Virus record (IMG/VR): IMGVR_UViG_3300017792_000001
Location: 40,697-104,696 of that record
DNA: 64,000 bases
From: a virus
Lineage: Duplodnaviria > Heunggongvirae > Uroviricota > Caudoviricetes
Reading direction: 5' to 3' (one strand)
Every line of letters begins with the position of its first letter. Within the stretch, counting starts at the first letter, position 1. Below, piece by piece: positions 39,365-64,000 of this stretch. The notes under the pieces were generated by a model. That model made no database searches, was not told where the DNA came from, and saw only the letters and a list, made by a program, of their open reading frames with translations. Position numbers and translations under genes: made by a program.

Positions 39365-39957
39365 GGCTTATTTCCTATGTGCATCGTAATGCGGTTCTTG
39401 CGACCTGACAGCCCGTTGAGTATCGCACACGAGCAGAAGAACCCGTAACGACGGCATGCTTCGGCTGCAACAGGTGCTTCGGTGATTTCATTCAACGGCT
39501 CTGGCGCTTCGTTCGGGTCGATCCAGCGGCTGTAACGATCAACCCAGACCATGTGATCTGGAATCACTTCACCGTTCTGGAATATGGAATTCGCACGCAT
39601 TTCGGCTTGACGTGCTCGCCATGCAGCCTGCTCTGCTTCGATGCGGACGTTGCGTGCTTCCTCTACTGCAATCTCCTCGGCCGTGGTGACAAAGGTGCTG
39701 TCAACGTCCTTGATGGTGATCGCATCATAGAAGTACAGACGGTTCTCGCCGTCGTTGACTTGAATTGCCAGATCATACGTGACCTTGGAATTCGAGAACT
39801 GCACCTTTTCAATACGTGCCTTGAAGGCTTTGTACATATTGTCTTTGGTGAGCAGCCAGGTGTTCGGATGAAACAACACCTCTGAACCAATCTCGAAGCG
39901 AGAGGAGAATGCACCCGAGTCAGCGACCTTCAACTTCATACTCAGTGAGATAATCAT
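39361..39957 (-). CDS. hypothetical protein
   Basis: 198 aa, ATGA overlaps on both sides. Confidence 0.5.
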   Translation of the reverse strand: MIISLSMKLKVADSGAFSSRFEIGSEVLFHPNTWLLTKDNMYKAFKARIEKVQFSNSKVTYDLAIQVNDGENRLYFYDAITIKDVDSTFVTTAEEIAVEEARNVRIEAEQAAWRARQAEMRANSIFQNGEVIPDHMVWVDRYSRWIDPNEAPEPLNEITEAPVAAEACRRYGFFCSCAILNGLSGRKNRITMHIGNKP

Positions 39958-40418
39958 TCGTGGATCACTCGCTTCTGGTTGTTCTTGGTGAGCGACACCG
40001 AAATCCAGTGCGTCTTGTCCTGGAGGGTGTCGAATTCAGGCAGTGTCTGGATGAACTCAAACAGGCCTTTGTTGTTGCGCGACCGGAGTGTCACTGCGCA
40101 GCATGACTGGTGTTGCTTCTGTTCCAGATACGTGCGCCACGATTCAGGGCGAATATGCAGGCGGTTCGCAATGCACCACTGGACGTAAGCGTTGCGGCTG
40201 TAGTCCTTCTCAAGCGCTTCACTGCGATACCAGGAAGTGATGTGGTACTGGAAGCCAGCTTCGATCAATGGCTCCAGAATACCGAGGGCTAGCGCACGGG
40301 CATTATCAACCAGCGCGTTGCTATCCACTTCGTTGTTGATGTTGAGGCGTACTGCCTGTTCGTTGTACTGGACATCGTACAGGGTGAAGTTGTCACTGAT
40401 CCGGATTCGATTGTCCAT
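39954..40418 (-). CDS. peptidase M15-like protein, putative endolysin (catalytic motif not evident)
   Basis: ISDNFTLYDV ... ALALGILEPLIEAGFQYHITSWYRS matches the N-terminal half of Peptidase_M15_3; the SxHxxGxAxD motif is not recognisable; directly upstream of the spanin and holin. Confidence 0.35.
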   Translation of the reverse strand: MDNRIRISDNFTLYDVQYNEQAVRLNINNEVDSNALVDNARALALGILEPLIEAGFQYHITSWYRSEALEKDYSRNAYVQWCIANRLHIRPESWRTYLEQKQHQSCCAVTLRSRNNKGLFEFIQTLPEFDTLQDKTHWISVSLTKNNQKRVIHE

Positions 40419-40882
40419 TAAAGCACCAATAAAATACCCATGAACACGATCATGGTCTTGTGAATGAGGAGCTCGGTTGAGAACTCTTGGTACTGCTGCC
40501 GACGTGCGTTCTCTGTCTCAGCATACTTCTGCTGGAAGAAGTTGGCACGGTCTTCCTCAAGGGTGAGAGTTTGCAGCATGACATTGCGCTGATCAACCAA
40601 GCCATTGTGTGCTGTGATCAACAACTGGAGCGCTTCGGTGTTTTGCTTGGCTGCAGCCTCGAAGGCCGATAGCTTCTGCACACCAACGCTGTTCAGCACA
40701 GCATACGAAGTCCCGTCGATTTGCTTGATCTGGAGCTTGTCCGTCTGCGGCAGTTCTGCGGCGACAGCGTTCAGCTTCTCAGTCGGGACTAGCTTGGAAT
40801 AACGGTCGCTTGGCTCGACCGGTACTTGTTGCGTGCCGCACCCTGTAAGGAATACGGCTAAGACCAGCGCAATGTACTTCAT
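40418..40882 (-). CDS. unimolecular spanin (u-spanin)
   Basis: N-terminal lipoprotein signal MKYIALVLAVFLTGC (lipobox LTGC) plus C-terminal TM LLIHKTMIVFMGILLVL with a periplasmic coiled region; TAATG and ATGA coupling to neighbours. Confidence 0.6.
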   Translation of the reverse strand: MKYIALVLAVFLTGCGTQQVPVEPSDRYSKLVPTEKLNAVAAELPQTDKLQIKQIDGTSYAVLNSVGVQKLSAFEAAAKQNTEALQLLITAHNGLVDQRNVMLQTLTLEEDRANFFQQKYAETENARRQQYQEFSTELLIHKTMIVFMGILLVL

Positions 40883-41268
40883 GCGGTAGTACCACCTGTT
40901 TGGGTAAGTTCCTTCATTTTCTGCTCTTGCACGGCGATGGCAGCTTCCTGCTTGGCGATGATGTCACCAGCAGTTCCACCGACGGGTGCTTTATTGAGCA
41001 GGTTATCACAGGCGAATCCTATCGCCATGTATGCCAGCTTGCCTGACTCTGGGTCAGTGATGATCGTGAACAGGAATGCCGAGAACGTACCCAGCAGTGC
41101 AGTCTGCGTGCGACCCGGATATTGCTTCCAGTATGCACCCAGGCTGATTTCCAATTCACGGCTACGCTTTGCCCAGTTGATTGCGACACCGATACACACG
41201 CACATGAAATACGTGAGTGCTATATGCGGCTCCACTCCCAGCAACTCCTTCACTGCGTCTAAAAACAT
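40879..41268 (-). CDS. holin candidate (3 TM segments)
   Basis: 129 aa with hydrophobic helices (IALTYFMCVCIGVAINW; ALLGTFSAFLFTII; LAYMAIGFACDNLL) and a charged C-terminus; adjacent to the spanin. Confidence 0.5.
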   Translation of the reverse strand: MFLDAVKELLGVEPHIALTYFMCVCIGVAINWAKRSRELEISLGAYWKQYPGRTQTALLGTFSAFLFTIITDPESGKLAYMAIGFACDNLLNKAPVGGTAGDIIAKQEAAIAVQEQKMKELTQTGGTTA

Positions 41269-41280
41269 GGTGTTCGCTCC

Positions 41281-41586
41281 TTACTGCTTGCCCTTGTTGT
41301 ACGAGTTGACTGCATCTTCCAAGGACATATCTGGTTGAATAACCACGGGCTTCGGCTTCAATGCCGTTTCGATGGTTTTGTGTTGGTCGGCAAGTACGAC
41401 TTGCTCTTTTTCGAGTTGCTTGGCGTTGTTGTCGGCCTGAGACATATCAGGACTTTTCGCAACGGGTTCATTCGCTGGGTTAGCTGGTGACTTACGCATG
41501 ACGACAGCTACGGCGAGACCAATAGCAGCCGGAATTCCCAAGACTAACCAAGCTTTGATCTTCGATAACCATTCCATACGTTTCAC
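41281..41586 (-). CDS. type-II single-pass membrane protein (antiholin / holin-partner candidate)
   Basis: N-terminal TM WLVLGIPAAIGLAVAVV, Pro/Lys-rich periplasmic tail; sits in the lysis cassette. Confidence 0.4.
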   Translation of the reverse strand: MKRMEWLSKIKAWLVLGIPAAIGLAVAVVMRKSPANPANEPVAKSPDMSQADNNAKQLEKEQVVLADQHKTIETALKPKPVVIQPDMSLEDAVNSYNKGKQ

Positions 41587-53688: not shown

Positions 53689-53722
53689 AGAAAGGGGACT
53701 AAAGAAGTAGTCCTTTAGTCCC
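53689..53722 (-). terminator. hairpin terminator/attenuator (perfect 12-bp stem AGGGGACTAAAG / CTTTAGTCCCCT, then TTCTTGTTTCTCT on the minus strand)
   Basis: Lies immediately downstream of the 53743 stop on the minus strand. Confidence 0.55.
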
Positions 53723-53742
53723 CTCTGTGGTGTGTCTACTAC

Positions 53743-54747
53743 TTACGCAGCAGGTACGCCACCGCCGTCGATCAGGAACAGCAGGCGCATTTTGGTGTTG
53801 TTCGCACCGTTGGCTTTCAGTGCGCGATACAGACGTGGGGTCTGCTCGTTGTACACGGTGACCGGGATTTCCGATTCTTCGGCGATCACGTCAGCACTGG
53901 TATATGCGATCATATCCAGTTCTTCGGTGTACGCGTAGCGGTCGGTGTTCAGACGGTTCGGGAAGGTGATCAGGTACTTGTTGCCCTTGGCAATAGCAAC
54001 CTGGTCCTTACCATTCAGAATCGCGGCGCTGTTCACGGTGTCGATTTCGGCAGATACCGACTTCGTTGGACGGAACACGTCGCTTTCCGATACGACGAAC
54101 TTCTGAGCTTCTTGCGAGTCGCAGGAGTACACGCAGAAGATCGGGCTGTTGTCGGTTTTCAGGACAGCACCAGTCGACTTGTCGACAGGAGCCTGGATCA
54201 GGAACCAGCTGTTGGACGGCGAAACGTCCGAAGCATCTTCCCACACTTGCAGCGCCAGGCCACGATCGGTAGCGACCATGTAGTAGCTGTAGGTGGTACC
54301 GGCGTCGTACACGACGTTCAGCAGGTTGCGAGTGATGAACACGTCGCCCAGTGCTTGGCCTTGGGTTTTCGACCAGGCATTACCCAGTTGACCCATGACG
54401 CGGTCGCCGTACTGCTGACCGGTGTTGTTACCTGGGAACTGAGTGGTGCTGCCGTCCGCTGGGATCTGCTGTGGGTTAGCCACGGCAATCTTCAGGGTAC
54501 CGGTGCCAGGGTTCTGGGTAGTCGAAGCAACGTCAACCAGCAAGCGCCACGGTTGGGTAGCGTTCATCGGGTTGATGGCAGCGTGCGAGTCGAACACGAA
54601 CTTGCCCGAACCGGCGGTCAGCGCAAACGGAGTGCTCGAAGCTGGAAGGATCTGAGTCAGACCAACAGCCTTGAGGTCGGTGAACAGAGCCAGAGCAACA
54701 GCGCCCAGGCCTTGCAGTTTGGATTTGGTATATACTTTACCAGCCAT
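53743..54747 (-). CDS. abundant virion structural protein (major tail or tube/capsid-associated candidate)
   Basis: Start at ATG 54747 with strong RBS GGAGA (7-nt spacing); highly biased codon usage; followed by an attenuator hairpin. Confidence 0.5.
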   Translation of the reverse strand: MAGKVYTKSKLQGLGAVALALFTDLKAVGLTQILPASSTPFALTAGSGKFVFDSHAAINPMNATQPWRLLVDVASTTQNPGTGTLKIAVANPQQIPADGSTTQFPGNNTGQQYGDRVMGQLGNAWSKTQGQALGDVFITRNLLNVVYDAGTTYSYYMVATDRGLALQVWEDASDVSPSNSWFLIQAPVDKSTGAVLKTDNSPIFCVYSCDSQEAQKFVVSESDVFRPTKSVSAEIDTVNSAAILNGKDQVAIAKGNKYLITFPNRLNTDRYAYTEELDMIAYTSADVIAEESEIPVTVYNEQTPRLYRALKANGANNTKMRLLFLIDGGGVPAA

Positions 54748-54761
54748 TGATGTGTCTCCGG

Positions 54762-55328
54762 TTATACAGAAATAAACCCACAAAGGGTGATCGAGATGTC
54801 GGCCAACGCTGGGTCGGTCGTTTGAGGCGCAAACACAACAATCGTTTCCCCACGTTTAATGAGGATGTCATCCATGGAGTTCGATTGGAATTCAGCAGTG
54901 TCATTCCCATCCGAAAACACAATGTTTCCGATGAAGTTGGCAGAGCCGTCTTCTGGTGTATGCACAATCGAGAACTCTTGCGTGCTTGTCGAAGGCTGTA
55001 GCGCTTTTGCAATCGCTCCTGCGAAGCCGCCCTGAATTACAAACGAGCGGGGTGCAACGAACAGCATTACGCGCTGGTTAGCTTCCGGGCTGCCGAAGAC
55101 AGTACCCGACAAGTCATAAGACAGCAGGCTGTATTGCGGCGAGCGCAAAGTCCAGACGTTACGAGTGAACTCGTAGATGCCAGGACCTTGATTACCAGCG
55201 GCTTGAGTGAGTTCCCACAGAGCACCGTCAGTTGGAACTTGCGGGAATTGGGTTCCCCGGCGAGCTTCATCCAACATCTCAATGCCAAGACCAGAACCTG
55301 CGGCGATAGTTAGACCATCAGTCAGCAT
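54762..55328 (-). CDS. hypothetical structural protein
   Basis: Start set to ATG 55328 (RBS AGGAG, 7-nt spacing); ORF-track start 55367 is GTG. Confidence 0.45.
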   Translation of the reverse strand: MLTDGLTIAAGSGLGIEMLDEARRGTQFPQVPTDGALWELTQAAGNQGPGIYEFTRNVWTLRSPQYSLLSYDLSGTVFGSPEANQRVMLFVAPRSFVIQGGFAGAIAKALQPSTSTQEFSIVHTPEDGSANFIGNIVFSDGNDTAEFQSNSMDDILIKRGETIVVFAPQTTDPALADISITLCGFISV

Positions 55329-55536: not shown

Positions 55537-56136
55537 TCATACGCACCGCGCTCGCCCGGTCATCGGGCTGGTAAACGTTGCGGTGGCCTGGGTCATTGCG
55601 TCATTATGCACGATTGACGTGGGCTGGATTTCCATGTTGCCAGCGAAGCAACGGACGAGCGGCAGGTAACCAAGATTGTGGTTGATCACCCAGATCTGCT
55701 CGTTGTTGAACACTTGCTCGTAAGCAACTTGTGGACGAGGGATACCCTCGGTGCTGCCCATGATCAGAATGGCACGACCGGCTTGTGGCTCAGAGAACCG
55801 GATCGTCGCATGGTTGAACGAGAACTCAACCTCGTCCTCCATGATCGCTTTGTTGTCACCCGAAAGAACTTGCACGATACAACCTGCGGTTTGCAGCTTG
55901 TGGTCGATTTCCCAGACTGACGATGCCACGAACTGGTCGTGGATGTGAGTCTGGAGTTCATTGCTCATGGGCAACCAGACCGGGACACCATCTTGAATCT
56001 CCAGGCAGATGAAAATGCGACTGCCTTTGAAGATGAAGGTGCCCGGCTTGGGTTCAAGCGGCCATTGATCAACGGGTTCGAGCGCGAAGTTCTTCAGGGT
56101 ATTACCCAGAAGGTCGAGGTCGCCATTGATCTGCAT
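55537..56136 (-). CDS. hypothetical structural protein
   Basis: 199-aa ORF directly downstream of the tail fibre gene. Confidence 0.5.
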   Translation of the reverse strand: MQINGDLDLLGNTLKNFALEPVDQWPLEPKPGTFIFKGSRIFICLEIQDGVPVWLPMSNELQTHIHDQFVASSVWEIDHKLQTAGCIVQVLSGDNKAIMEDEVEFSFNHATIRFSEPQAGRAILIMGSTEGIPRPQVAYEQVFNNEQIWVINHNLGYLPLVRCFAGNMEIQPTSIVHNDAMTQATATFTSPMTGRARCV

Positions 56137-56149
56137 GTAGCCTCCGGGA

Positions 56150-57856
56150 TTATGCTGCTACTTTCTTACCGCTGACAACCACGAAGATTTTCTGCGCAAC
56201 AGCCAGGGTGACGGTGACGGTGTTGGCGTCAGTCAGCTTGACCGAATCAGGCAGTAGCTGGTTGAACGCTTCGTCGTACACGGCAACAGTCGCGAAACGG
56301 TTGTTCATGTTGTGCGTGACAACGTAGCTATCGGCAGCAGCACCGGTAGTACCGTCGAACACGAACTGGTTCGCGTCCAGCTTGGCACCCAGATCAGTGA
56401 TGGTCTGAGTAACGGTGGTCACTGCGTCGGTCACAGTCTTGCGGTTCGCGATGCTGGTGTCAGCAGTCGGAGCAGGAACAGCGATCTGGCCAGTCAGGGT
56501 TGCAGTCGCAGCGTCCAGCTTCAGGTACGAAGCCGAGATATCACCGATTGCAACACCGTCGGTGGTAACAGTGACAGTGCCGTCGGCAGCTTTGACAGCG
56601 AGCGCAGTACCTGCACCGCCTTGGAGGCCGTTACCAACAACGTCAGCAGCCAGGTTGGCAGCTTTCACGCCTTCGCTTGCGATGCGAACGCCGGTAGCGT
56701 CAACGGCGAGGCCGCCAGTGTCTTTCAGCAGAACAGCCAGCACGGAATCAGCAGCGGTAGAAGCATCGCCAGTGATCGGGTCGACCAGACGCAGACCGCC
56801 AGTGGTGCCGACGTCGAGACCGATTTCACCGGTAGGTAGGTTAGCAACACCAGCACCGAACTTGACGCTCAGAACGTTGCCGTTCTTTTCCAGACCAGCG
56901 GATACAGTGACGCCGCTCAGGCCGCCTTGTTCCGACCAGTTGGTGCCGTCAAACTTCTTGTACTTGCCTTCTGCGCGATCCCAGACCAGGACGCCAGGAC
57001 CACGAACGCTCACGTCGTAGATCACAACGTAGTCGTCGCCTTTCTTCTGGATGATGTCGCCATCTTCCAGGCCGTCGATAGTACCGAACTCAGCGTTCAG
57101 GGTATCGGCGTCGGTAACGATGTAGCGGTTCTCGTTGTCAGGAACGACAGACAGAGTAGGCGTCAGGGTACCGTCAACCTGGGTTGCGATCACGTCGGCT
57201 TGGAAGTCGAGCGAGGCTTTCAGGTTGTCGATGTCGATCAGACGCACAGGGCTGGTCGGATCGGTTGGCGCAGACAGGTTCAGCAGCGTGTGAGTGCCGC
57301 CGAAGTTCAGGTCGCCGGTCAGTGCATCGCCAGCTTTGTTTACCGGAACGTAGCCCAGGTCGTCTTGCTTGAGTTCGATCTGGGTCTGGATGTTGTCGGT
57401 AACGCCATCCAGGTGGTTCAGTTCGGTAACGCTGATCAGTGCGGAACCACTGATCTTGCCATCAGCATCAGTAACTGCAACCACGGACGGAGCCAGGTCG
57501 AGAGTAGTGATGGTAGTAGCGGCACCAGTGATCTTGTCCTGCTTGGCTTCACCAGCAGTTTCGATTGCAGCGGTGAGCTGGCCGACAGTAGCGGCTTCGA
57601 GGGCTTGAACGCCGTCAGCAGCGAGGATCAGCGGACCGGTGAGCGTGCCACCTTCTTTCGACAGGTAAGCATCGAGGCTACCACCAGTTGCGATGGTCAG
57701 CACTTCGGTACCGTTGTACCAGCGCAGTGCTTTGTCGGTGGTGTTGACCCACGTCAGACCCTGAACAAGATCAGCGCCGGATGGATCAGCCGCGAGACGA
57801 CCAGGCTTCAGGCCCTGAATCTCGCCGACTACTTGAATATTGCCGTTATAGCGCAT
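56150..57856 (-). CDS. tail fibre protein
   Basis: N-terminus NGNIQVVGEIQGLKPGRLAADPSGADLVQGLTWVNTTDKALRWYNGT typical of a fibre N-domain; phage-fibre repeat GGTLTGPLIL; long Gly/Thr/Ala-rich beta repeats. Confidence 0.7.
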   Translation of the reverse strand: MRYNGNIQVVGEIQGLKPGRLAADPSGADLVQGLTWVNTTDKALRWYNGTEVLTIATGGSLDAYLSKEGGTLTGPLILAADGVQALEAATVGQLTAAIETAGEAKQDKITGAATTITTLDLAPSVVAVTDADGKISGSALISVTELNHLDGVTDNIQTQIELKQDDLGYVPVNKAGDALTGDLNFGGTHTLLNLSAPTDPTSPVRLIDIDNLKASLDFQADVIATQVDGTLTPTLSVVPDNENRYIVTDADTLNAEFGTIDGLEDGDIIQKKGDDYVVIYDVSVRGPGVLVWDRAEGKYKKFDGTNWSEQGGLSGVTVSAGLEKNGNVLSVKFGAGVANLPTGEIGLDVGTTGGLRLVDPITGDASTAADSVLAVLLKDTGGLAVDATGVRIASEGVKAANLAADVVGNGLQGGAGTALAVKAADGTVTVTTDGVAIGDISASYLKLDAATATLTGQIAVPAPTADTSIANRKTVTDAVTTVTQTITDLGAKLDANQFVFDGTTGAAADSYVVTHNMNNRFATVAVYDEAFNQLLPDSVKLTDANTVTVTLAVAQKIFVVVSGKKVAA

Positions 57857-57871: not shown

Positions 57872-58663
57872 TCAGGAAGTGATTTCAACGATTTTGATGC
57901 GGGGGTTTTCTTGAAGATCAGTTAACATGCGGGCAAGTGGTGACTCGCCGACGATGACTCCATTCTTCAATTCGAGCGTATCTTCCGTGTAGTTCTTCAC
58001 CTTCACTGGGATCACGATATCCGGCAGCACCACGTGTGCGAGGTAGTGCTCTAGCCTGTGCTTCGTGATAAAACTCCCTGTCTCGCGGTAGTCGCGAAGA
58101 TCATCCCGTCCAATGTACGTGATGATGTTGTCCGGCTGTGATTCGTTTGTCGTTACTTTTTGTTCGACCAGATTCGACCCGAGTAGACAGTCGATTTCGT
58201 ACAATTCGTACAGGGTGCGCTGCAATGCAGCCACCAAAGCATCAATGATGAGGGGGTACGCTTCCAGTTGCGATACACCAATGCTTTCTCTCACGCGCCG
58301 TTTGAACGACTGAGGTATGTGCTTGTGGACAGAGGCAAACACCTTCAGGTAGTCAGGCAAGAACACGTCACTGTGGATGGCGAAGATTTGCTTGTTCGAC
58401 TCAACAACCTCGCCGAAGCGTTGGAAGATAATCTTGATGTCGGACTCATCCACAGTATTGCGATTGAGAAGCAGGCTTTCTACTTTGCTCGCCCAGTCGC
58501 TGTACGTGTTGAAGAACAGCAACTGGATTTCTCGGGCGACCTGGCTAAACTGCTTTCGCTCGTCGATCAGCTCATTCAGAATGAAGGACTTGGAGTTGTA
58601 GTACCTTTCCAATGCCTTAGAACTGACGGAGCGAAACCGTATGTTATTCAGCACATAGGCCAT
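57872..58663 (-). CDS. moron gene A: cytoplasmic N/I/K-rich protein of unknown function
   Basis: 263 aa; A/T-shifted codon usage relative to its neighbours; no recognisable domain. Confidence 0.5.
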   Translation of the reverse strand: MAYVLNNIRFRSVSSKALERYYNSKSFILNELIDERKQFSQVAREIQLLFFNTYSDWASKVESLLLNRNTVDESDIKIIFQRFGEVVESNKQIFAIHSDVFLPDYLKVFASVHKHIPQSFKRRVRESIGVSQLEAYPLIIDALVAALQRTLYELYEIDCLLGSNLVEQKVTTNESQPDNIITYIGRDDLRDYRETGSFITKHRLEHYLAHVVLPDIVIPVKVKNYTEDTLELKNGVIVGESPLARMLTDLQENPRIKIVEITS

Positions 58664-58673
58664 AGTGAACTTC

Positions 58674-59225
58674 CTACAAGCCTCTATTCATGGTCTTCGC
58701 GATAGACATACCCGTGAGCACACCGGCTACCTGGCTTTGCTTGTCGCTGATGTCCGAAACTTGACGGGCCAGCGATTCCAAAAGGCGGGTTAGTCGTTCT
58801 ACTTCACGTTGCACGTCACTGCGACCCTGTTTAGAGTGGTCAGAGGCGGTATCGAGCACTTCACTCAGCTTGTCCAGAGATTCTCGGACTTCAAGGAACA
58901 TGCGTTCCATAACGCCAGTTAGTGCGGTTGATTGTTGTTCCACTGCGGACTTGAGAGCACCAACGATCGTCACAAGATCATTAACGTTCTGTTGGCTTTG
59001 CAGACTGGTCGCCAGCTCTTGCATAAATTTCTGGACGTTAGCCTTTTGCAATTCAAACTCGTCACCCAATTTACGTTGCAGATCCGAGTTTTGTTCGCGC
59101 AGTGTTTTCACTTCTTCGAGAAGGGGAATCACGAAAAAGTAGTAGCCAGCCAAACATGCAGCAGTTATGACGACACATACTGCAATCGGCAGTGGGCTAC
59201 TGAGAATGGTTTGCATGAAGTCCAT
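58674..59225 (-). CDS. moron gene B: N-terminal TM + coiled-coil membrane protein
   Basis: TM PLPIAVCVVITAACLAGYYFFVIPLL, then heptad-rich segment. Confidence 0.5.
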   Translation of the reverse strand: MDFMQTILSSPLPIAVCVVITAACLAGYYFFVIPLLEEVKTLREQNSDLQRKLGDEFELQKANVQKFMQELATSLQSQQNVNDLVTIVGALKSAVEQQSTALTGVMERMFLEVRESLDKLSEVLDTASDHSKQGRSDVQREVERLTRLLESLARQVSDISDKQSQVAGVLTGMSIAKTMNRGL

Positions 59226-59234
59226 TGAGTAGCC

Positions 59235-59516
59235 TCATTGGCATCGGTCATCGCTCGGTATAACTCTTATGTTCCGGATATTGGGATTGATCGCATCGGA
59301 CTCGATCAGCACTTCCGAGATTCTCGGTTCCGACACATTGCAAACATCGCCTGTAGCCTTGTTTACGACACAAACGCTTTGCACGCACTCCAGCGTCGAG
59401 TAACGGACAGATTCCCTGTCAGGCTTACCGGAGGAGAACTGAATTGCGATGTAGGCAACGAATGCCAGCAGCGCAAGAATAATCCCTCTGGAGACTTTCG
59501 TTTGGGTACTAGCCAT
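59235..59516 (-). CDS. moron gene C: small single-TM Cys-containing exported protein
   Basis: 93 aa; TM IILALLAFVAYIAIQF; five Cys in the periplasmic part. Confidence 0.45.
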   Translation of the reverse strand: MASTQTKVSRGIILALLAFVAYIAIQFSSGKPDRESVRYSTLECVQSVCVVNKATGDVCNVSEPRISEVLIESDAINPNIRNIRVIPSDDRCQ

Positions 59517-60368
59517 CTATCCACCGCCTTCGACTATATCAAACTTTCCAATTGAAGCACGGTAGACTGGAAGCCACTTGGCTTTCACACGCTTCAGGTT
59601 GGCACAAGAGCTAATGTGCGGCTTAGATGGTTGGTCGTAAGCGGCCATTGCCAGAATTGCGGCCTCACCAGGAGTGGGGCCTAAAGCAAAGGTCGTTTTA
59701 AACCCTGTGCGACAAATACCAACGTCTAAATGTCGTGAGTTCGCAGTCACAAAGAGCTTTTCAATCTCCGTGTAACCGACATTCGCATTCCATTCGTCAA
59801 CAAGGGTGAAGACATTGAGCACGATTGTGCCCTTTGGCTCACCCTGAAGTTTCTGCACCAGCTTGCGGAACTCCAACACCGTATCGACATCAAACACTTC
59901 TGGCGTATTATCGCCCAGCTGCTTCTTGAGGTCAGCTAGACGCAATGCCGCGAGAGCGGACTTGTCCGTGATGATGTAGATCGCTTTCTCTTTGGGGTTG
60001 TAAGCACCGAGGGCGGTAGCAGCTACCATATTGAACGTTTCCCCACCAAACAACACCGAGCTGTATTTGGTAGAGAACCCAATATTAAGGGCAGGTTCAC
60101 CCAGGAACACGACTAAGTCCGGCTTCCGCTTTTCGACCCAAGCTTTGACCACGTTTGTGAGGCTATCACGCGAGTAAGCAGAGTTGTCATGCGAGAATTC
60201 CCGAACGTTGAGGACGTCAATCATGTGATCGTCCTCATTCGCCAGCATTTTCTGGATGATTGTGTTTCCATACAAGTCGTGAATGGTTGCGGACTGCACA
60301 ACCGAAAGACTTTGGGCATTTACCGTTGAGCATAAAATTAGCGAGGCTACTACCAATACCCAATTCAT
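59517..60368 (-). CDS. moron gene D: secreted/periplasmic protein with cleavable signal peptide (possible periplasmic-binding-protein-like fold)
   Basis: Signal peptide MNWVLVVASLILCSTVNAQS; stop TAG abuts the next ATG. Confidence 0.5.
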   Translation of the reverse strand: MNWVLVVASLILCSTVNAQSLSVVQSATIHDLYGNTIIQKMLANEDDHMIDVLNVREFSHDNSAYSRDSLTNVVKAWVEKRKPDLVVFLGEPALNIGFSTKYSSVLFGGETFNMVAATALGAYNPKEKAIYIITDKSALAALRLADLKKQLGDNTPEVFDVDTVLEFRKLVQKLQGEPKGTIVLNVFTLVDEWNANVGYTEIEKLFVTANSRHLDVGICRTGFKTTFALGPTPGEAAILAMAAYDQPSKPHISSCANLKRVKAKWLPVYRASIGKFDIVEGGG

Positions 60369-60375
60369 AACGGTA

Positions 60376-61218
60376 TTACCTGAGGCCTACCAGGACTGCG
60401 GTCCCTGCACGGGCTTTTGCGAACGTGACTTTGAACGTGTTCACATCAAGGGGTTCCATCGTTTCTGGCATTACAAACTCGCCAGTCTCTAGGTAAACTT
60501 GGGCAAGGATTGCCTCAGTTCCCAGGTTGTGCTCGATACGCCACTCAAGCGCAGCTTCGGCCTGTTCGAATTTCTTCGAGGGAATCGAACCACCAGGGCC
60601 CGTCGGTGTTTCTTCCAGCGTTTTGATACGGGCTTCGGTGCTTGTCACACGGTTGCGGATCGAAGTGATCTGCGAACGAACGGATGCCATCTGCTGATAC
60701 ACGGACGCAGCGACTGCTTGCGCAGCATCCGTGAGCTTCTTCGTCAAGGTCTTCGGAATGGCTTCCTGATCGGCAAAGTTGTCAATCGAGGTATCAGTGC
60801 GGAGCAACAACGGGCCGAGCATCTTGCCGCCAGTCGTTTGATTGACCGCGTCGATGTCCGCAGTTTCCAGGAAGAACGGGTTACCCACGTTGCGGTTCAA
60901 CTCTTTGAAGGGCTGATCCGTGGGCATCGGTTCGTCCCAGATCTGCGGCGTCCAGAAGTTGGCTTCTGTGGCATCAGTCCAGGTGTGCGTGTAGGCTTGT
61001 GAGCTTGCGCGACTTACCCGACGCAGTGTGGTATTACTGGTCGGGTTAATCCAGAGTAGATCAAGCGGTGCAACAACGTTCGTAGGCTCTGTGAAGCTGA
61101 CGATGATGTTTACCCGTTGCTTGGCTACACCTCCGTCTGTAGAGAGCAGAATCGGTGCAGACTGACCTAGACCTCTGGCCTGGGCCGCCGCAACGAGTCT
61201 GGCGATTGGTAGGGACAT
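60376..61218 (-). CDS. short tail fibre protein
   Basis: Phage-fibre repeat GGKMLGPLLL; central coiled coil (QITSIRNRVTSTEARIKTLEE). Confidence 0.5.
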   Translation of the reverse strand: MSLPIARLVAAAQARGLGQSAPILLSTDGGVAKQRVNIIVSFTEPTNVVAPLDLLWINPTSNTTLRRVSRASSQAYTHTWTDATEANFWTPQIWDEPMPTDQPFKELNRNVGNPFFLETADIDAVNQTTGGKMLGPLLLRTDTSIDNFADQEAIPKTLTKKLTDAAQAVAASVYQQMASVRSQITSIRNRVTSTEARIKTLEETPTGPGGSIPSKKFEQAEAALEWRIEHNLGTEAILAQVYLETGEFVMPETMEPLDVNTFKVTFAKARAGTAVLVGLR

Positions 61219-61714: not shown

Positions 61715-62524
61715 TTATGCTTTGGCGTCACTGCCGATAACGAACCAGTAGAAGTCCCAGCCCAGTGCAGCGGCTGCTTTCGTTCCGCCCGCACCATCAG
61801 GTACTTGAGGCAGCAGCGCAGTGTTCACGCTGAGCTCCATGTTGCCCTTGTTGATCTTGTCAATGCGCACGGCGTGCTTCACCGCAGACGTTGGATCAAT
61901 GAACTGGATGAATGCAGTGCGAGTCGTCTCTTGGGTAAACGCTTCTGGGAACACGACGCGCTGGAAGATGGCAGCACTGTTACTGGTGAAACGTCCCCAG
62001 CATTTCAGCGTGCTGTCTTCGTACAGTTCGTACCCGCCAGTTTCCCCGACACCAAAGAGAGGCATCTTGCCGTCTTTACCTGCGGGACCCGTTGGACCAG
62101 TCGGTCCGGTTGGGCCAGTCGCACCGAGAGTACCGGGGCCACCGGGAGGGCCAGCAGGTCCAGTGTTACCGGCAGGACCTGGATCACCTTTCGGGCCGAC
62201 GCAACCAGTATCGCCGCGACGACCGTCTTTACCGTTTCGACCATTGACGCCCTGGCTACCTTGCGGGCCAGTGGGACCCGTAGGCCCCACGCCGATACTC
62301 GACTTGGTGAGCAGACCGCGAATCAGTACAACGGAACGGTCTGCTTTTGTCAGTGTGAGCGTGCCGGTCTCAGTGTCATATTGACCCGAGACGACCTGCG
62401 TATCACTGTTATTCTCATCCTGATCTTGGAGCTCCAGGTCCTCGCCGTTGAACAGAACAACGTCGTTGGCGGAACCCTTACCCGGTTCGATCAGTTGCAG
62501 CGGGATCTTCGTTAATCCACTCAT
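61715..62524 (-). CDS. collagen-like (G-X-Y repeat) tail fibre protein
   Basis: ~75-aa uninterrupted Gly-X-Y tract ([73 protein letters not shown]). Confidence 0.65.
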
Positions 62525-62531
62525 AGCGTGC

Positions 62532-62702
62532 TCACTTCACTGTCAACCATTTGGTATTGTCGGAGGAACGCACCCGAGTATTCCCCGGGTGCATTTGGAT
62601 CCAAGCGCTATTTGCGGCATTGCGCACCTTCCAGCCCAGCTTATCGAAGTTCTCGATCCACGGGCTGGCTGCTGTCTGACGTACACGGAGTCTGACTGCC
62701 AT
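62532..62702 (-). CDS. small coupled ORF (56 aa)
   Basis: [56 protein letters not shown]; TAATG overlap with upstream gene stop; below the ORF-track cutoff. Confidence 0.3.
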
Positions 62703-64000
62703 TATTCAATCTCCCCAATCGAGTTCGCTTGTCCTTTCCAGTCTGCTGCACGGGTCACGTACACAAGCTGGTTGTTCAAACGCACCGAGAAACACGCATA
62801 CCCCGGCGTACAATCCGGGACGTTCAGGTAACGAAGGATGATGTTGCGCTTCCCTTTCGCTACAGTCACTGTGGTTACCTTGTCGCCAATTGGACCAGAC
62901 GCAACCAACTTGCAGTCGATGTACATTTCAAAGTCATCGTCATTGCGGTTGTAAAACACGTACTGACCACTAGCAGGGAAATCAATGAAGGCTTGCATCA
63001 GGTACTTCGTGTTGCCACGTGCGCAGTTCAGGTTTGGTTGCACGTACAAACCGTAGCTGCCATCTGGACCTCCAGCAAACTCATTCACTGGGTCTGTTGG
63101 ACGTTGACGACACAAGGCGCTGTCATCGTCTTGGATCGTACCAGTACCTTCTGCGGTATTGATCGTACCCTTCGTCGCGTTGCTGATGGTCATGATGATC
63201 GTCCGATCCCCATCAACCGTGTCGTTACCAATCAACGGCACACAGACTTGCTTGCTGCTTTCACCCGGAGCGAATGTCACAGTCCCAGAAGTAGGAATGT
63301 AATCAGGACGCTTCTCGGTGAGTTTGATTGCACCTTCACTACCACCAGCTGGCAGCTTCTCGCAGTGCAGCCCGTTCCAAGCCTGGTGATCACCGTTGCG
63401 ATTGATCATATCCCGCACAGAGACTGGGTTGCGGTCAACGCTACCATAAAACTCAATGCCGAACTGGTTCGCAAGTTGGTTAGCGCCCGACTGGAACACA
63501 TAGTGGTCCGTGATCACAATCAACCCACCACCGTTCTTCACGTACTGACCGAAGTTGGTGACAGATGCAGGCTTGAAGACACCTTCGCTTGCAGCACCAG
63601 TCGCAGTCACACGACTACCAATGAAGATGATCACGTCGTATTGTTGGAGGTCAGCCAGCGGGATAACCCCGACGCTGTTCCATGCGTACACGTCTTTGAC
63701 TTCAGGTGTGAACCCAGCAGCGGTGATCGTCAACGGAATACCGGTTGCGAAACCAGTAGCTTGTGCATCGAGCCCGTAGTTACCGCCAGCAGCAACGTCA
63801 CCCGTGAGCAGCACTTTGCGACTCGCACCAGGACTGCGTGCAGACCATTGAATCAGGTTCTTCAGGTACGTGAACGCTGGTGCAAGACCAATACCACCGC
63901 TAGCGATGTTCGAGAACGAAGCGTTGGCCTGGGACTGTGCGCAGAGACCATAGAAGGACTTCTGGGCAAACATCTCAAGTCCGGCACCGTTCAGGTTCAC
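62702..64000 (-). CDS. Calx-beta domain virion protein (5' end beyond window; partial)
   Basis: TVTFAPGESSKQVCVPLIGNDTVDGDRTIIMTISNATKGTINTAEGTGTIQDDD is a textbook Calx-beta motif; frame still open at nt 64000. Confidence 0.55.
   Translation of the reverse strand: MNLNGAGLEMFAQKSFYGLCAQSQANASFSNIASGGIGLAPAFTYLKNLIQWSARSPGASRKVLLTGDVAAGGNYGLDAQATGFATGIPLTITAAGFTPEVKDVYAWNSVGVIPLADLQQYDVIIFIGSRVTATGAASEGVFKPASVTNFGQYVKNGGGLIVITDHYVFQSGANQLANQFGIEFYGSVDRNPVSVRDMINRNGDHQAWNGLHCEKLPAGGSEGAIKLTEKRPDYIPTSGTVTFAPGESSKQVCVPLIGNDTVDGDRTIIMTISNATKGTINTAEGTGTIQDDDSALCRQRPTDPVNEFAGGPDGSYGLYVQPNLNCARGNTKYLMQAFIDFPASGQYVFYNRNDDDFEMYIDCKLVASGPIGDKVTTVTVAKGKRNIILRYLNVPDCTPGYACFSVRLNNQLVYVTRAADWKGQANSIGEIE

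Follow-up and report, generated by a model that had tools for sequence, protein, structure and literature searches.

We examined a block of four genes, here called D, C, B, and A in their order of transcription, at positions 57872-60368 of a 64-kb window, by which we mean the whole 64,000-nucleotide (nt) stretch analysed (positions 40,697 to 104,696 of the tailed-phage record IMGVR_UViG_3300017792_000001 of IMG/VR). The block lies among tail fibre genes. An earlier inspection of the letters alone, hereafter the sequence-only reading, had described it as a tightly packed, A/T-shifted, envelope-directed module that had been inserted between those genes as a horizontally acquired moron. The four open reading frames (ORFs) that it listed are all present, with precisely the boundaries it gave:

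59517-60368, minus strand: gene D, an ORF of 283 amino acids (aa)
59235-59516, minus strand: gene C, an ORF of 93 aa
58674-59225, minus strand: gene B, an ORF of 183 aa
57872-58663, minus strand: gene A, an ORF of 263 aa

Transcription runs D>C>B>A, on the minus strand throughout, and the spacing is tight: 7 nt separate an upstream short fibre gene from D, 0 nt D from C, 9 nt C from B, 10 nt B from A, and 15 nt A from the gene for a 568-aa protein that follows it. The lack of any gap between two adjacent genes had been noticed before, and indeed the TAG stop of D runs directly into the ATG start of C. Neighbouring block genes also overlap or abut in Dickeya phage AD1, Erwinia phage Y3, Yersinia phage fHe-Yen9-02, and the marine phage NCTB. 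In a scan for sigma-70-type consensus sequences only, promoter- and terminator-like sites did not exceed shuffled expectation, and none flanked the block. Because the gaps are 0-15 nt and the genes have no promoter- or terminator-like sites of their own, the late tail/fibre operon probably carries all four. The products, too, are of the types that had been described: D has a signal-like segment, C and B have one N-terminal helix each, and A has no hydrophobic segment. The gaps and the N-terminal segments of D, C, and B support the view of the block as a late, co-transcribed, tightly packed four-gene unit whose predicted target is the envelope. The strongest terminator-like hairpin of the region (53691-53726, minus strand; a 16-bp stem followed by a T-rich tail) lies just past a 346-aa gene (53743-54783) and may end the late fibre operon that holds the block.

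Megablast shows the window to be related to the Pseudomonas jumbo phage PaBG (Baikalvirus), at ~72% nucleotide identity, and all four genes have counterparts at the corresponding position in PaBG (A 263, B 183, C 94, and D 286 aa). Identity to the PaBG proteins is 73% for A, 68% for B, 62% for C, and 55% for D, values that fall within the 48-82% of twelve flanking genes; at the far end, in Dickeya, Erwinia, and Yersinia phages and in NCTB, it is ~20-25%. Searches with A by tblastn gave matches in Lu11, HRDY3, many Erwinia and Dickeya jumbo phages, and fHe-Yen9-02, as well as in six Vibrio phages (~191-196 kb), Ralstonia phage RsoM2USA, and NCTB, while D was found by the same method in PaBG, Lu11, HRDY3, and Y3. 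Gene order is shared as well. AD1, Y3, fHe-Yen9-02, and NCTB all have fibre, fibre, short fibre-like gene, D, C, B, A, and "virion structural protein," and Lu11 and HRDY3 have D-C-B-A-virion protein. A scan of IMG/VR recovered D-C-B-A in 34 of 34 loci, with a homologue of the 568-aa gene directly after A in 32 of them; the other two (L013 and L026) stop just past A. Orthologues of C that are unannotated in the public records are present in Lu11 (L003, 6205-6489), HRDY3 (L007, 6228-6515), and Y3 (L006, 6892-7176), and each encodes ~94 aa with a transmembrane (TM) helix and four cysteines.

Measured against a close metagenomic relative (L046), the ratio of nonsynonymous to synonymous substitution rates (dN/dS) was 0.08 for A, 0.03 for B, 0.03 for C, and 0.11 for D, all below the 0.13-0.19 of the flanking fibre genes. 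The synteny, the neighbour-like identity, and the low dN/dS together argue that the block is ancestral, vertically inherited, and under strong purifying selection. Sequence comparison thus indicates that it is an old, conserved part of the PaBG/Lu11/NCTB/Erwinia-Dickeya jumbo-phage lineage. The sequence-only reading had itself named conservation of the block in related phages as a finding that would speak against acquisition, and, as far as conservation goes, this is what we found. Nor is the description of the block as "inserted" borne out, since every relative examined (PaBG, Lu11, HRDY3, NCTB, AD1, Y3, fHe-Yen9-02, and the 34 IMG/VR loci) keeps it and none has contiguous fibre genes without it.

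A recently acquired foreign moron would draw its support from base composition. The claimed A/T shift holds in part: at a G+C content (GC) of 0.495, the block is the lowest 2.5 kb of the window (sliding-window mean, 0.534; standard deviation, 0.010), and all other windows as low overlap it. However, the shift is slight, and this dip below the flanking fibre genes is found again in all five relatives measured (PaBG, Lu11, AD1, Y3, and fHe-Yen9-02), with genomic GC values between 0.45 and 0.56. That the dip is kept across such divergence suggests a property of the genes, not a mark of recent transfer. The flanking fibre genes, which are Ala/Gly/Thr-rich and have a GC of 0.56-0.58, account for some of the contrast. 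Gene A does not prefer the AAT, ATT, and AAA codons attributed to it. It favours AAC over AAT (8 to 6), ATC over ATT (17 to 5), and AAG over AAA (11 to 4), and its GC at third codon positions (GC3) is 0.663, above the mean of 0.634 for 47 reference genes. Its low GC is confined to codon positions 1 and 2 (z = -2.7) and therefore reflects amino-acid composition; Asn, Ile, and Lys do make up 20% of A versus 14% of the fibre proteins, so the description of A as rich in these residues is correct in direction, but the difference is modest. GC3 is somewhat low in B, C, and D, and synonymous-choice scores are below average for C (z = -3.2) and D (z = -2.7), the score for C being noisy because the gene has only 93 codons. 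Against these compositional points stand the synteny in every relative and all 34 loci, divergence in step with the neighbours, the shared dip, the above-average GC3 of A, the lack of a promoter or terminator proper to the block, the low dN/dS, and the failure of a scan by one peptide pattern to find any A homologue in 185,579 species genomes. Recent horizontal transfer is contradicted by synteny, the shared dip, GC3, and dN/dS, and we regard the moron explanation as extremely improbable.

As the sequence-only reading had found, none of the four products belongs to a family that can be named: Pfam, NCBIfam, and PADLOC searches gave no family at threshold for A, B, C, or D, and none of the proteins matches a virion protein with a name. 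A known defence or anti-defence protein was rejected as a candidate, as PADLOC returned coiled-coil noise for B (E values of at least 1e-3) and nothing for A, C, and D. In the literature, we found no paper that discusses these four genes.

Gene A encodes the best-conserved product. The protein has no hydrophobic segment (maximum 19-residue Kyte-Doolittle hydropathy [KD19], 1.36) and is predicted to be cytoplasmic. Fourteen of its residues are invariant from Pseudomonas to Vibrio phages, and an invariant N-terminal motif, NNIxxR, reads NNIRFR in the window. The homologues found are 208-272 aa long (nearly all 247-272) and have no Pfam domain, and the longest contigs that carry them reach 316 kb. 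AlphaFold2 gave a confident model (predicted local distance difference test [pLDDT], 93.3; predicted template modelling score, 0.89) with an N-terminal six-helix bundle (residues 8-161) and a small C-terminal alpha/beta domain (180-262). A search of BFVD returned solely unnamed phage orthologues, and an A profile had no match among PDB sequences. The modelled fold is thus a confident one, has no known relative, and would represent a new fold combination. Although A matches phrog_19088 ("ABC transporter") end to end (E = 3e-101), we rejected this PHROG and RefSeq label, as the protein has no Pfam or NCBIfam match to ATP-binding cassette (ABC) families, no Walker A motif (GxxxxGK[ST]), no TM segment, and no ABC fold.

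The other three products each begin with a hydrophobic segment:

59121-59192, minus strand: TM helix of B, approximately residues 12-35 (maximum KD19 of 2.30, starting at residue 15)
59430-59486, minus strand: TM helix of C, approximately residues 11-29 (maximum KD19 of 2.08, starting at residue 11)
60315-60368, minus strand: signal peptide of D, residues 1-18 (MNWVLVVASLILCSTVNA then QS), read from the sequence

B has an acidic N-terminal tail without Lys or Arg, a single TM helix, and then a long coiled coil, and P34 is invariant in its orthologues. The protein matches phrog_28931 (E = 2e-73); its other matches in Pfam, NCBIfam, and PDB profile searches are of the coiled-coil type only. Across 27 distinct orthologues, the N-terminal tail has no Lys or Arg in 23 and one in 4, and 1-5 such residues come just after the helix. 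Pf3 coat protein has an N-out/C-in orientation. We infer the same orientation for B, which would place its coiled coil in the cytoplasm.

In every lineage, the Vibrio and Ralstonia phages among them, B is adjacent to A or the two genes overlap. The stop of B overlaps the start of A in AD1, Y3, and fHe-Yen9-02. In Vibrio phage pv27, a 132-aa TM and coiled-coil protein overlaps the A start, the surrounding genes are small, and C and D are absent; in RsoM2USA the order is inverted, A being followed by a 180-aa TM and coiled-coil protein with no C, D, or fibre gene nearby. Because B and A have been kept together through these rearrangements, their products most likely interact, which agrees with placing the coiled coil of B in the cytoplasm. 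The pair also stands alone in the Vibrio and Ralstonia jumbo phages, which suggests that B-A is the ancient core, and D-C looks like a periplasmic add-on that was gained in the PaBG/Lu11/NCTB/Erwinia lineage. In pv27, B-A is found within an array of many small paralogous genes, the products of which end in ...PEEFI or PELMI (L005, 4100-9400).

In C, a short basic N-terminus leads into a single TM helix and an ectodomain of ~60 aa; the protein had no family match in Pfam, NCBIfam, PHROG, or PDB searches. In seven orthologues, C44, C49, C59, C92, G56, and P64 are invariant, and the arrangement C-x4-C-x8/9-C-x29-32-C follows the TM helix in 27 distinct sequences and also in NCTB. Four invariant cysteines, all past the TM helix, point to a disulfide-bonded periplasmic ectodomain; C would accordingly be bitopic, N-in/C-out, with its ectodomain in an oxidising compartment. 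C has no lipobox, every Cys lying at least 13 residues past the TM helix (the first at ~15). A type IV pilin-like identity was rejected, as the weak PDB matches (E = 0.07-0.35) covered the hydrophobic helix only and neither the Gly-1 nor the Glu+5 of a class III leader is conserved.

The N-terminal hydrophobic segment of D ends in VNA|QS, and conservation of the NAQS motif and of the signal-like N-terminus suggests that D is exported to the periplasm with a predicted cleavable Sec-type signal. A lipoprotein is not indicated: the Cys within the signal peptide is replaced by Val or Ser in three homologues (P0062-P0064), hence there is no lipobox. C219 and C255 are invariant in 22 PaBG-like sequences and also occur in Lu11; NCTB does not have them. 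D partly matches phrog_31505 (E = 5e-10), and no match to PDB sequences was obtained even at an E value of 10. A full HMMER search with a D profile yielded 62 representatives among 1.84 billion proteins. One of these matches, P0141, passes the gathering score of PF04392 (ABC_sub_bind), and another, P0139, matches that family weakly. When the D profile was aligned with P0141 by hhalign, the probability was 94.4% over D residues 66-222. The P0141 score and this alignment indicate that D derives remotely from the PF04392-type substrate-binding fold and has a single alpha/beta lobe like those of type I periplasmic-binding proteins. The genes around D are fibre genes and C, B, and A; eight neighbouring proteins were scanned, and none had an ABC domain.

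Our favoured reading, to which we give a probability of roughly 45%, is that the block is an ancestral, vertically inherited, late, and probably non-virion module, the four products of which form one complex spanning the inner membrane. The secreted D, folded like one lobe of a substrate-binding protein, would be the likely ligand- or partner-binding input. C, N-in/C-out, would offer its small disulfide-stabilised ectodomain as a docking site for D, and the helices of C and B would pair within the membrane. B, N-out/C-in, would hold A at the inner membrane face by means of its cytoplasmic coiled coil, so that a periplasmic cue read by D-C could govern the action of B-A in the cytoplasm late in infection. 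The apparent history of D-C as an add-on and the ligand-binding ancestry of D suggest such an input-output device. For the output, our leading guess would be a means of timing lysis or of responding to superinfection, because these known late processes of phages link the periplasm with the cytoplasm. A more specific version makes D-C-B-A a new transmembrane signalling device in which D, as a captured substrate-binding lobe, reads a periplasmic small molecule or envelope fragment and acts via C and B on A as the effector; we hold this version to be unlikely, if still credible.

What the data show is conservation, synteny, purifying selection, the modelled fold of A, the relationship of D to substrate-binding proteins, the invariant cysteines of C, and the B-A linkage; the topologies, the complex, the direction of signalling, and the output are proposals. 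Several points weigh against the favoured reading. The D model has a pLDDT of 60, better at residues 60-215, and is thus of low confidence; the alignment of D to the PF04392 type spans ~120-155 residues, about one lobe; and D itself has no Pfam match at E <= 0.1, which leaves it below the PF04392 threshold. The rule that Lys and Arg mark the cytoplasmic side is fallible for single-pass proteins, and lambda Rz, which has more of these residues after its TM helix yet faces the periplasm, breaks the count. If B likewise faced the periplasm, it could not hold A. A constant linkage of the block to an endolysin gene was rejected, such linkage being confined to the Lu11-like clade. The available virion proteomes, of 10-14 Coomassie bands, are too shallow to exclude minor virion proteins. 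Finally, an assembly or receptor-related role would account equally well for the strict linkage between the block and the 568-aa fibre gene.

This linkage is best judged together with the genes on either side of the block:

56150-57856, minus strand: 568-aa fibre-like virion protein (phrog_16122, E = 2e-159), directly following A
60376-61218, minus strand: 280-aa short fibre-like protein (phrog_24148), directly upstream of D
55537-56136, minus strand: 199-aa fibre-like protein with the C-terminal domain common to the 280- and 568-aa proteins

The 568-aa protein is 64% identical to PaBG gp257, and the 280-aa gene is syntenic in PaBG, AD1, Y3, fHe-Yen9-02, and NCTB. All three fibre-like proteins share a C-terminal domain of ~60 aa, as seen from cross-matches among phrog_21918, phrog_16122, and phrog_24148. 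The "HNH endonuclease" label of phrog_24148, which has been copied to the RefSeq entries of PaBG, AD1, Y3, and fHe-Yen9-02, is backed by no Pfam match and seems to be a mislabel. Farther upstream, at 61715-62524 (minus strand), lies a gene for a 269-aa protein that contains a long Gly-X-Y run of collagen type and is labelled a tail fibre protein in relatives; more collagen-repeat genes occur upstream in related contigs (Pfam Collagen in L046-L048). A large ORF at 62702-64000 (minus strand) runs past the window end. Its orthologues are 1099-1217 aa long with a weak Calx-beta match (L047 and L048), and it probably encodes a large fibre or adhesin-like protein.

The location of the block within a structural module raises the question of whether the four products are minor parts of the virion, such as proteins that are ejected into the host envelope, and the shallowness of the proteomes noted above leaves room for this. 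In PaBG, gp257, gp261, and gp263 were detected among 14 Coomassie bands, and none of gp253-256, the block orthologues, was (PMC7412058). Similarly, ORF432 and ORF433 of RsoM2USA were not among the 10 bands reported for that phage (PMC8504454). The Sec-type signal of D would take it out of the cytoplasm, where virions assemble, and B and C are predicted to be membrane-anchored. Virion membership therefore appears very unlikely.

A second possibility is that the block encodes a membrane-associated, non-virion platform or chaperone that builds the neighbouring tail fibres, the baseplate, or "hairs." The block is embedded in and apparently co-transcribed with the tail/fibre operon, the 568-aa virion protein adjoins A in every locus that reaches past A, and purifying selection is strong, as in a core morphogenetic gene. 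The lineage has also been called "hairy Myoviridae," with hairs of unknown origin (PMC6143709). On the other hand, tailed-phage assembly is cytoplasmic, which leaves a secreted D and a disulfide-bonded ectodomain with no obvious role, and B-A occurs in regions of pv27 and RsoM2USA that have no fibre genes. Another point against this role is that fibre chaperones are usually encoded downstream of their fibre. We consider an assembly factor doubtful on balance.

The same adjacency recalls genes that block receptors and sit beside receptor-binding genes, such as llp of T5 and cor of T1 and phi80. Superinfection exclusion and receptor masking were among the roles that the sequence-only reading had proposed, and the block could be an ancestral system for such exclusion or for receptor or entry masking, in which an envelope complex would obstruct the receptor or DNA-entry route used by the adjacent fibre, so that the infected cell is protected or progeny are not lost on debris. 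The predicted location of the products in the periplasm and inner membrane fits this explanation, as does the position of the block directly upstream of the 568-aa fibre gene in 32 of 34 loci (those extending past A). The periplasmic parts also diverge faster than the cytoplasmic ones, identity to PaBG rising from D (55%) through C (62%) and B (68%) to A (73%). However, the block has been kept across Pseudomonas, Erwinia, Dickeya, Yersinia, and marine-host phages with no divergence above that of core genes, and dN/dS values of 0.03-0.11 give no sign of an arms race. The best-conserved member, A, is the one predicted to be cytoplasmic, the B-A pair lies away from fibre genes in the Vibrio and Ralstonia phages, and D has no lipobox. 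Known exclusion genes are typically early, and the block is in a late operon. We therefore treat exclusion or masking as unlikely, though it is an alternative to be taken seriously.

Lysis bears on the block in another way, as the window also encodes a complete-looking lysis cassette (39954-41586), ~17 kb from the block, in which the genes abut or overlap:

41281-41586, minus strand: 101-aa TM protein
40879-41268, minus strand: 129-aa multi-TM, holin-like protein
40418-40882, minus strand: 154-aa protein with a lipobox (LTGC) and a C-terminal TM segment, the architecture of a unimolecular spanin
39954-40418, minus strand: 154-aa M15-type endolysin

Its type of endolysin was found in Pseudomonas phages only. 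Were lysis effectors encoded by the block, the i-spanin would be B and the o-spanin or holin would be C, with D and A as accessories. B does have the TM helix followed by a coiled coil of an i-spanin, the Lu11-like clade has its lysis cassette directly after the block and its fibre gene, and the pv27 endolysin gene is 3.5 kb downstream. In PaBG, in contrast, the endolysin gene is 25 kb from the block. C has no lipobox and its first Cys is ~15 residues past the TM helix, the order C-then-B reverses the usual i-spanin-then-o-spanin, and the N-terminal tail of B does not have the basic residues of a signal anchor. Since a full lysis cassette, with spanin-, holin-, and endolysin-type proteins, is encoded elsewhere in the window and C is without a lipobox, a spanin or holin identity was rejected, and direct lysis effectors are a most improbable account of the block.

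If the four proteins work as one unit, they would perform an undescribed function, conserved and constrained, in the periplasm and inner membrane of hosts that include Pseudomonas, Erwinia, Dickeya, Yersinia, and marine bacteria. Small and with clear boundaries, the block occurs in phages that can be cultured (PaBG on PAO1, Lu11, AD1, and Y3). GenBank already lists the genes as hypothetical proteins, and they have PHROG entries, partly under wrong names; the value of this analysis is that of a well-defined target rather than of a discovery. Two misleading names in databases are corrected here as well, that of A ("ABC transporter") and that of the short fibre-like protein ("HNH endonuclease"). 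Were the signalling version true, jumbo phages with a long latent period could adjust their lysis or late development according to extracellular conditions, and the older B-A pair would be a widespread membrane effector of jumbo phages.

The four-part layout matches no described phage system, and A, B, and C match no known family, so comparison with known systems is one of parts or of logic. For D only, there is a likeness to the type I substrate-binding proteins of PF04392 (PDB 3lft, 5z6v, and 6hni), as the D profile reaches P0141 and hhalign gives 94%. Unlike those proteins, D has no Pfam or PDB match of its own, aligns over about one lobe, and belongs to a tiny family (62 representatives); it is accompanied by two bitopic proteins and a cytoplasmic one whose fold has no known relative rather than by an adjacent ABC permease or ATPase. 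B resembles the lambda Rz/Rz1 two-component spanins in having an N-terminal TM helix and then a coiled coil, but the block has no lipoprotein partner, the gene order is wrong, the N-terminal tail of B has no basic residue, and the phage has a unimolecular spanin-type protein of its own.

Periplasmic binding proteins act with a membrane partner in LuxP-LuxQ, TorT-TorS, and ChvE-VirA, and RseB-RseA-sigmaE has an anti-sigma layout. The block is like these systems by logic only, in that a periplasmic binding fold is combined with one or more bitopic proteins and with a cytoplasmic partner kept at the membrane. It differs from them in having no kinase, HAMP, sigma, or anti-sigma domain, in the lack of any sequence or fold match for A, B, and C, and in having two oppositely oriented single-pass proteins instead of one receptor.

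Lysis inhibition in T4 offers another parallel: RI is periplasmic, T is the holin, RIII is cytoplasmic, and gene t lies beside the tail-fibre genes. No sequence similarity to the block products was detected and the sizes are very different; moreover, the holin-like gene of the present phage lies elsewhere, and the block is linked to the lysis cassette in the Lu11-like clade only. The likeness is that RI, T, and RIII form a late phage set with periplasmic, membrane, and cytoplasmic members, that gene t, like the block, is near fibre genes, and that the T4 set ties a periplasmic cue to lysis timing, as we propose that the block may do.

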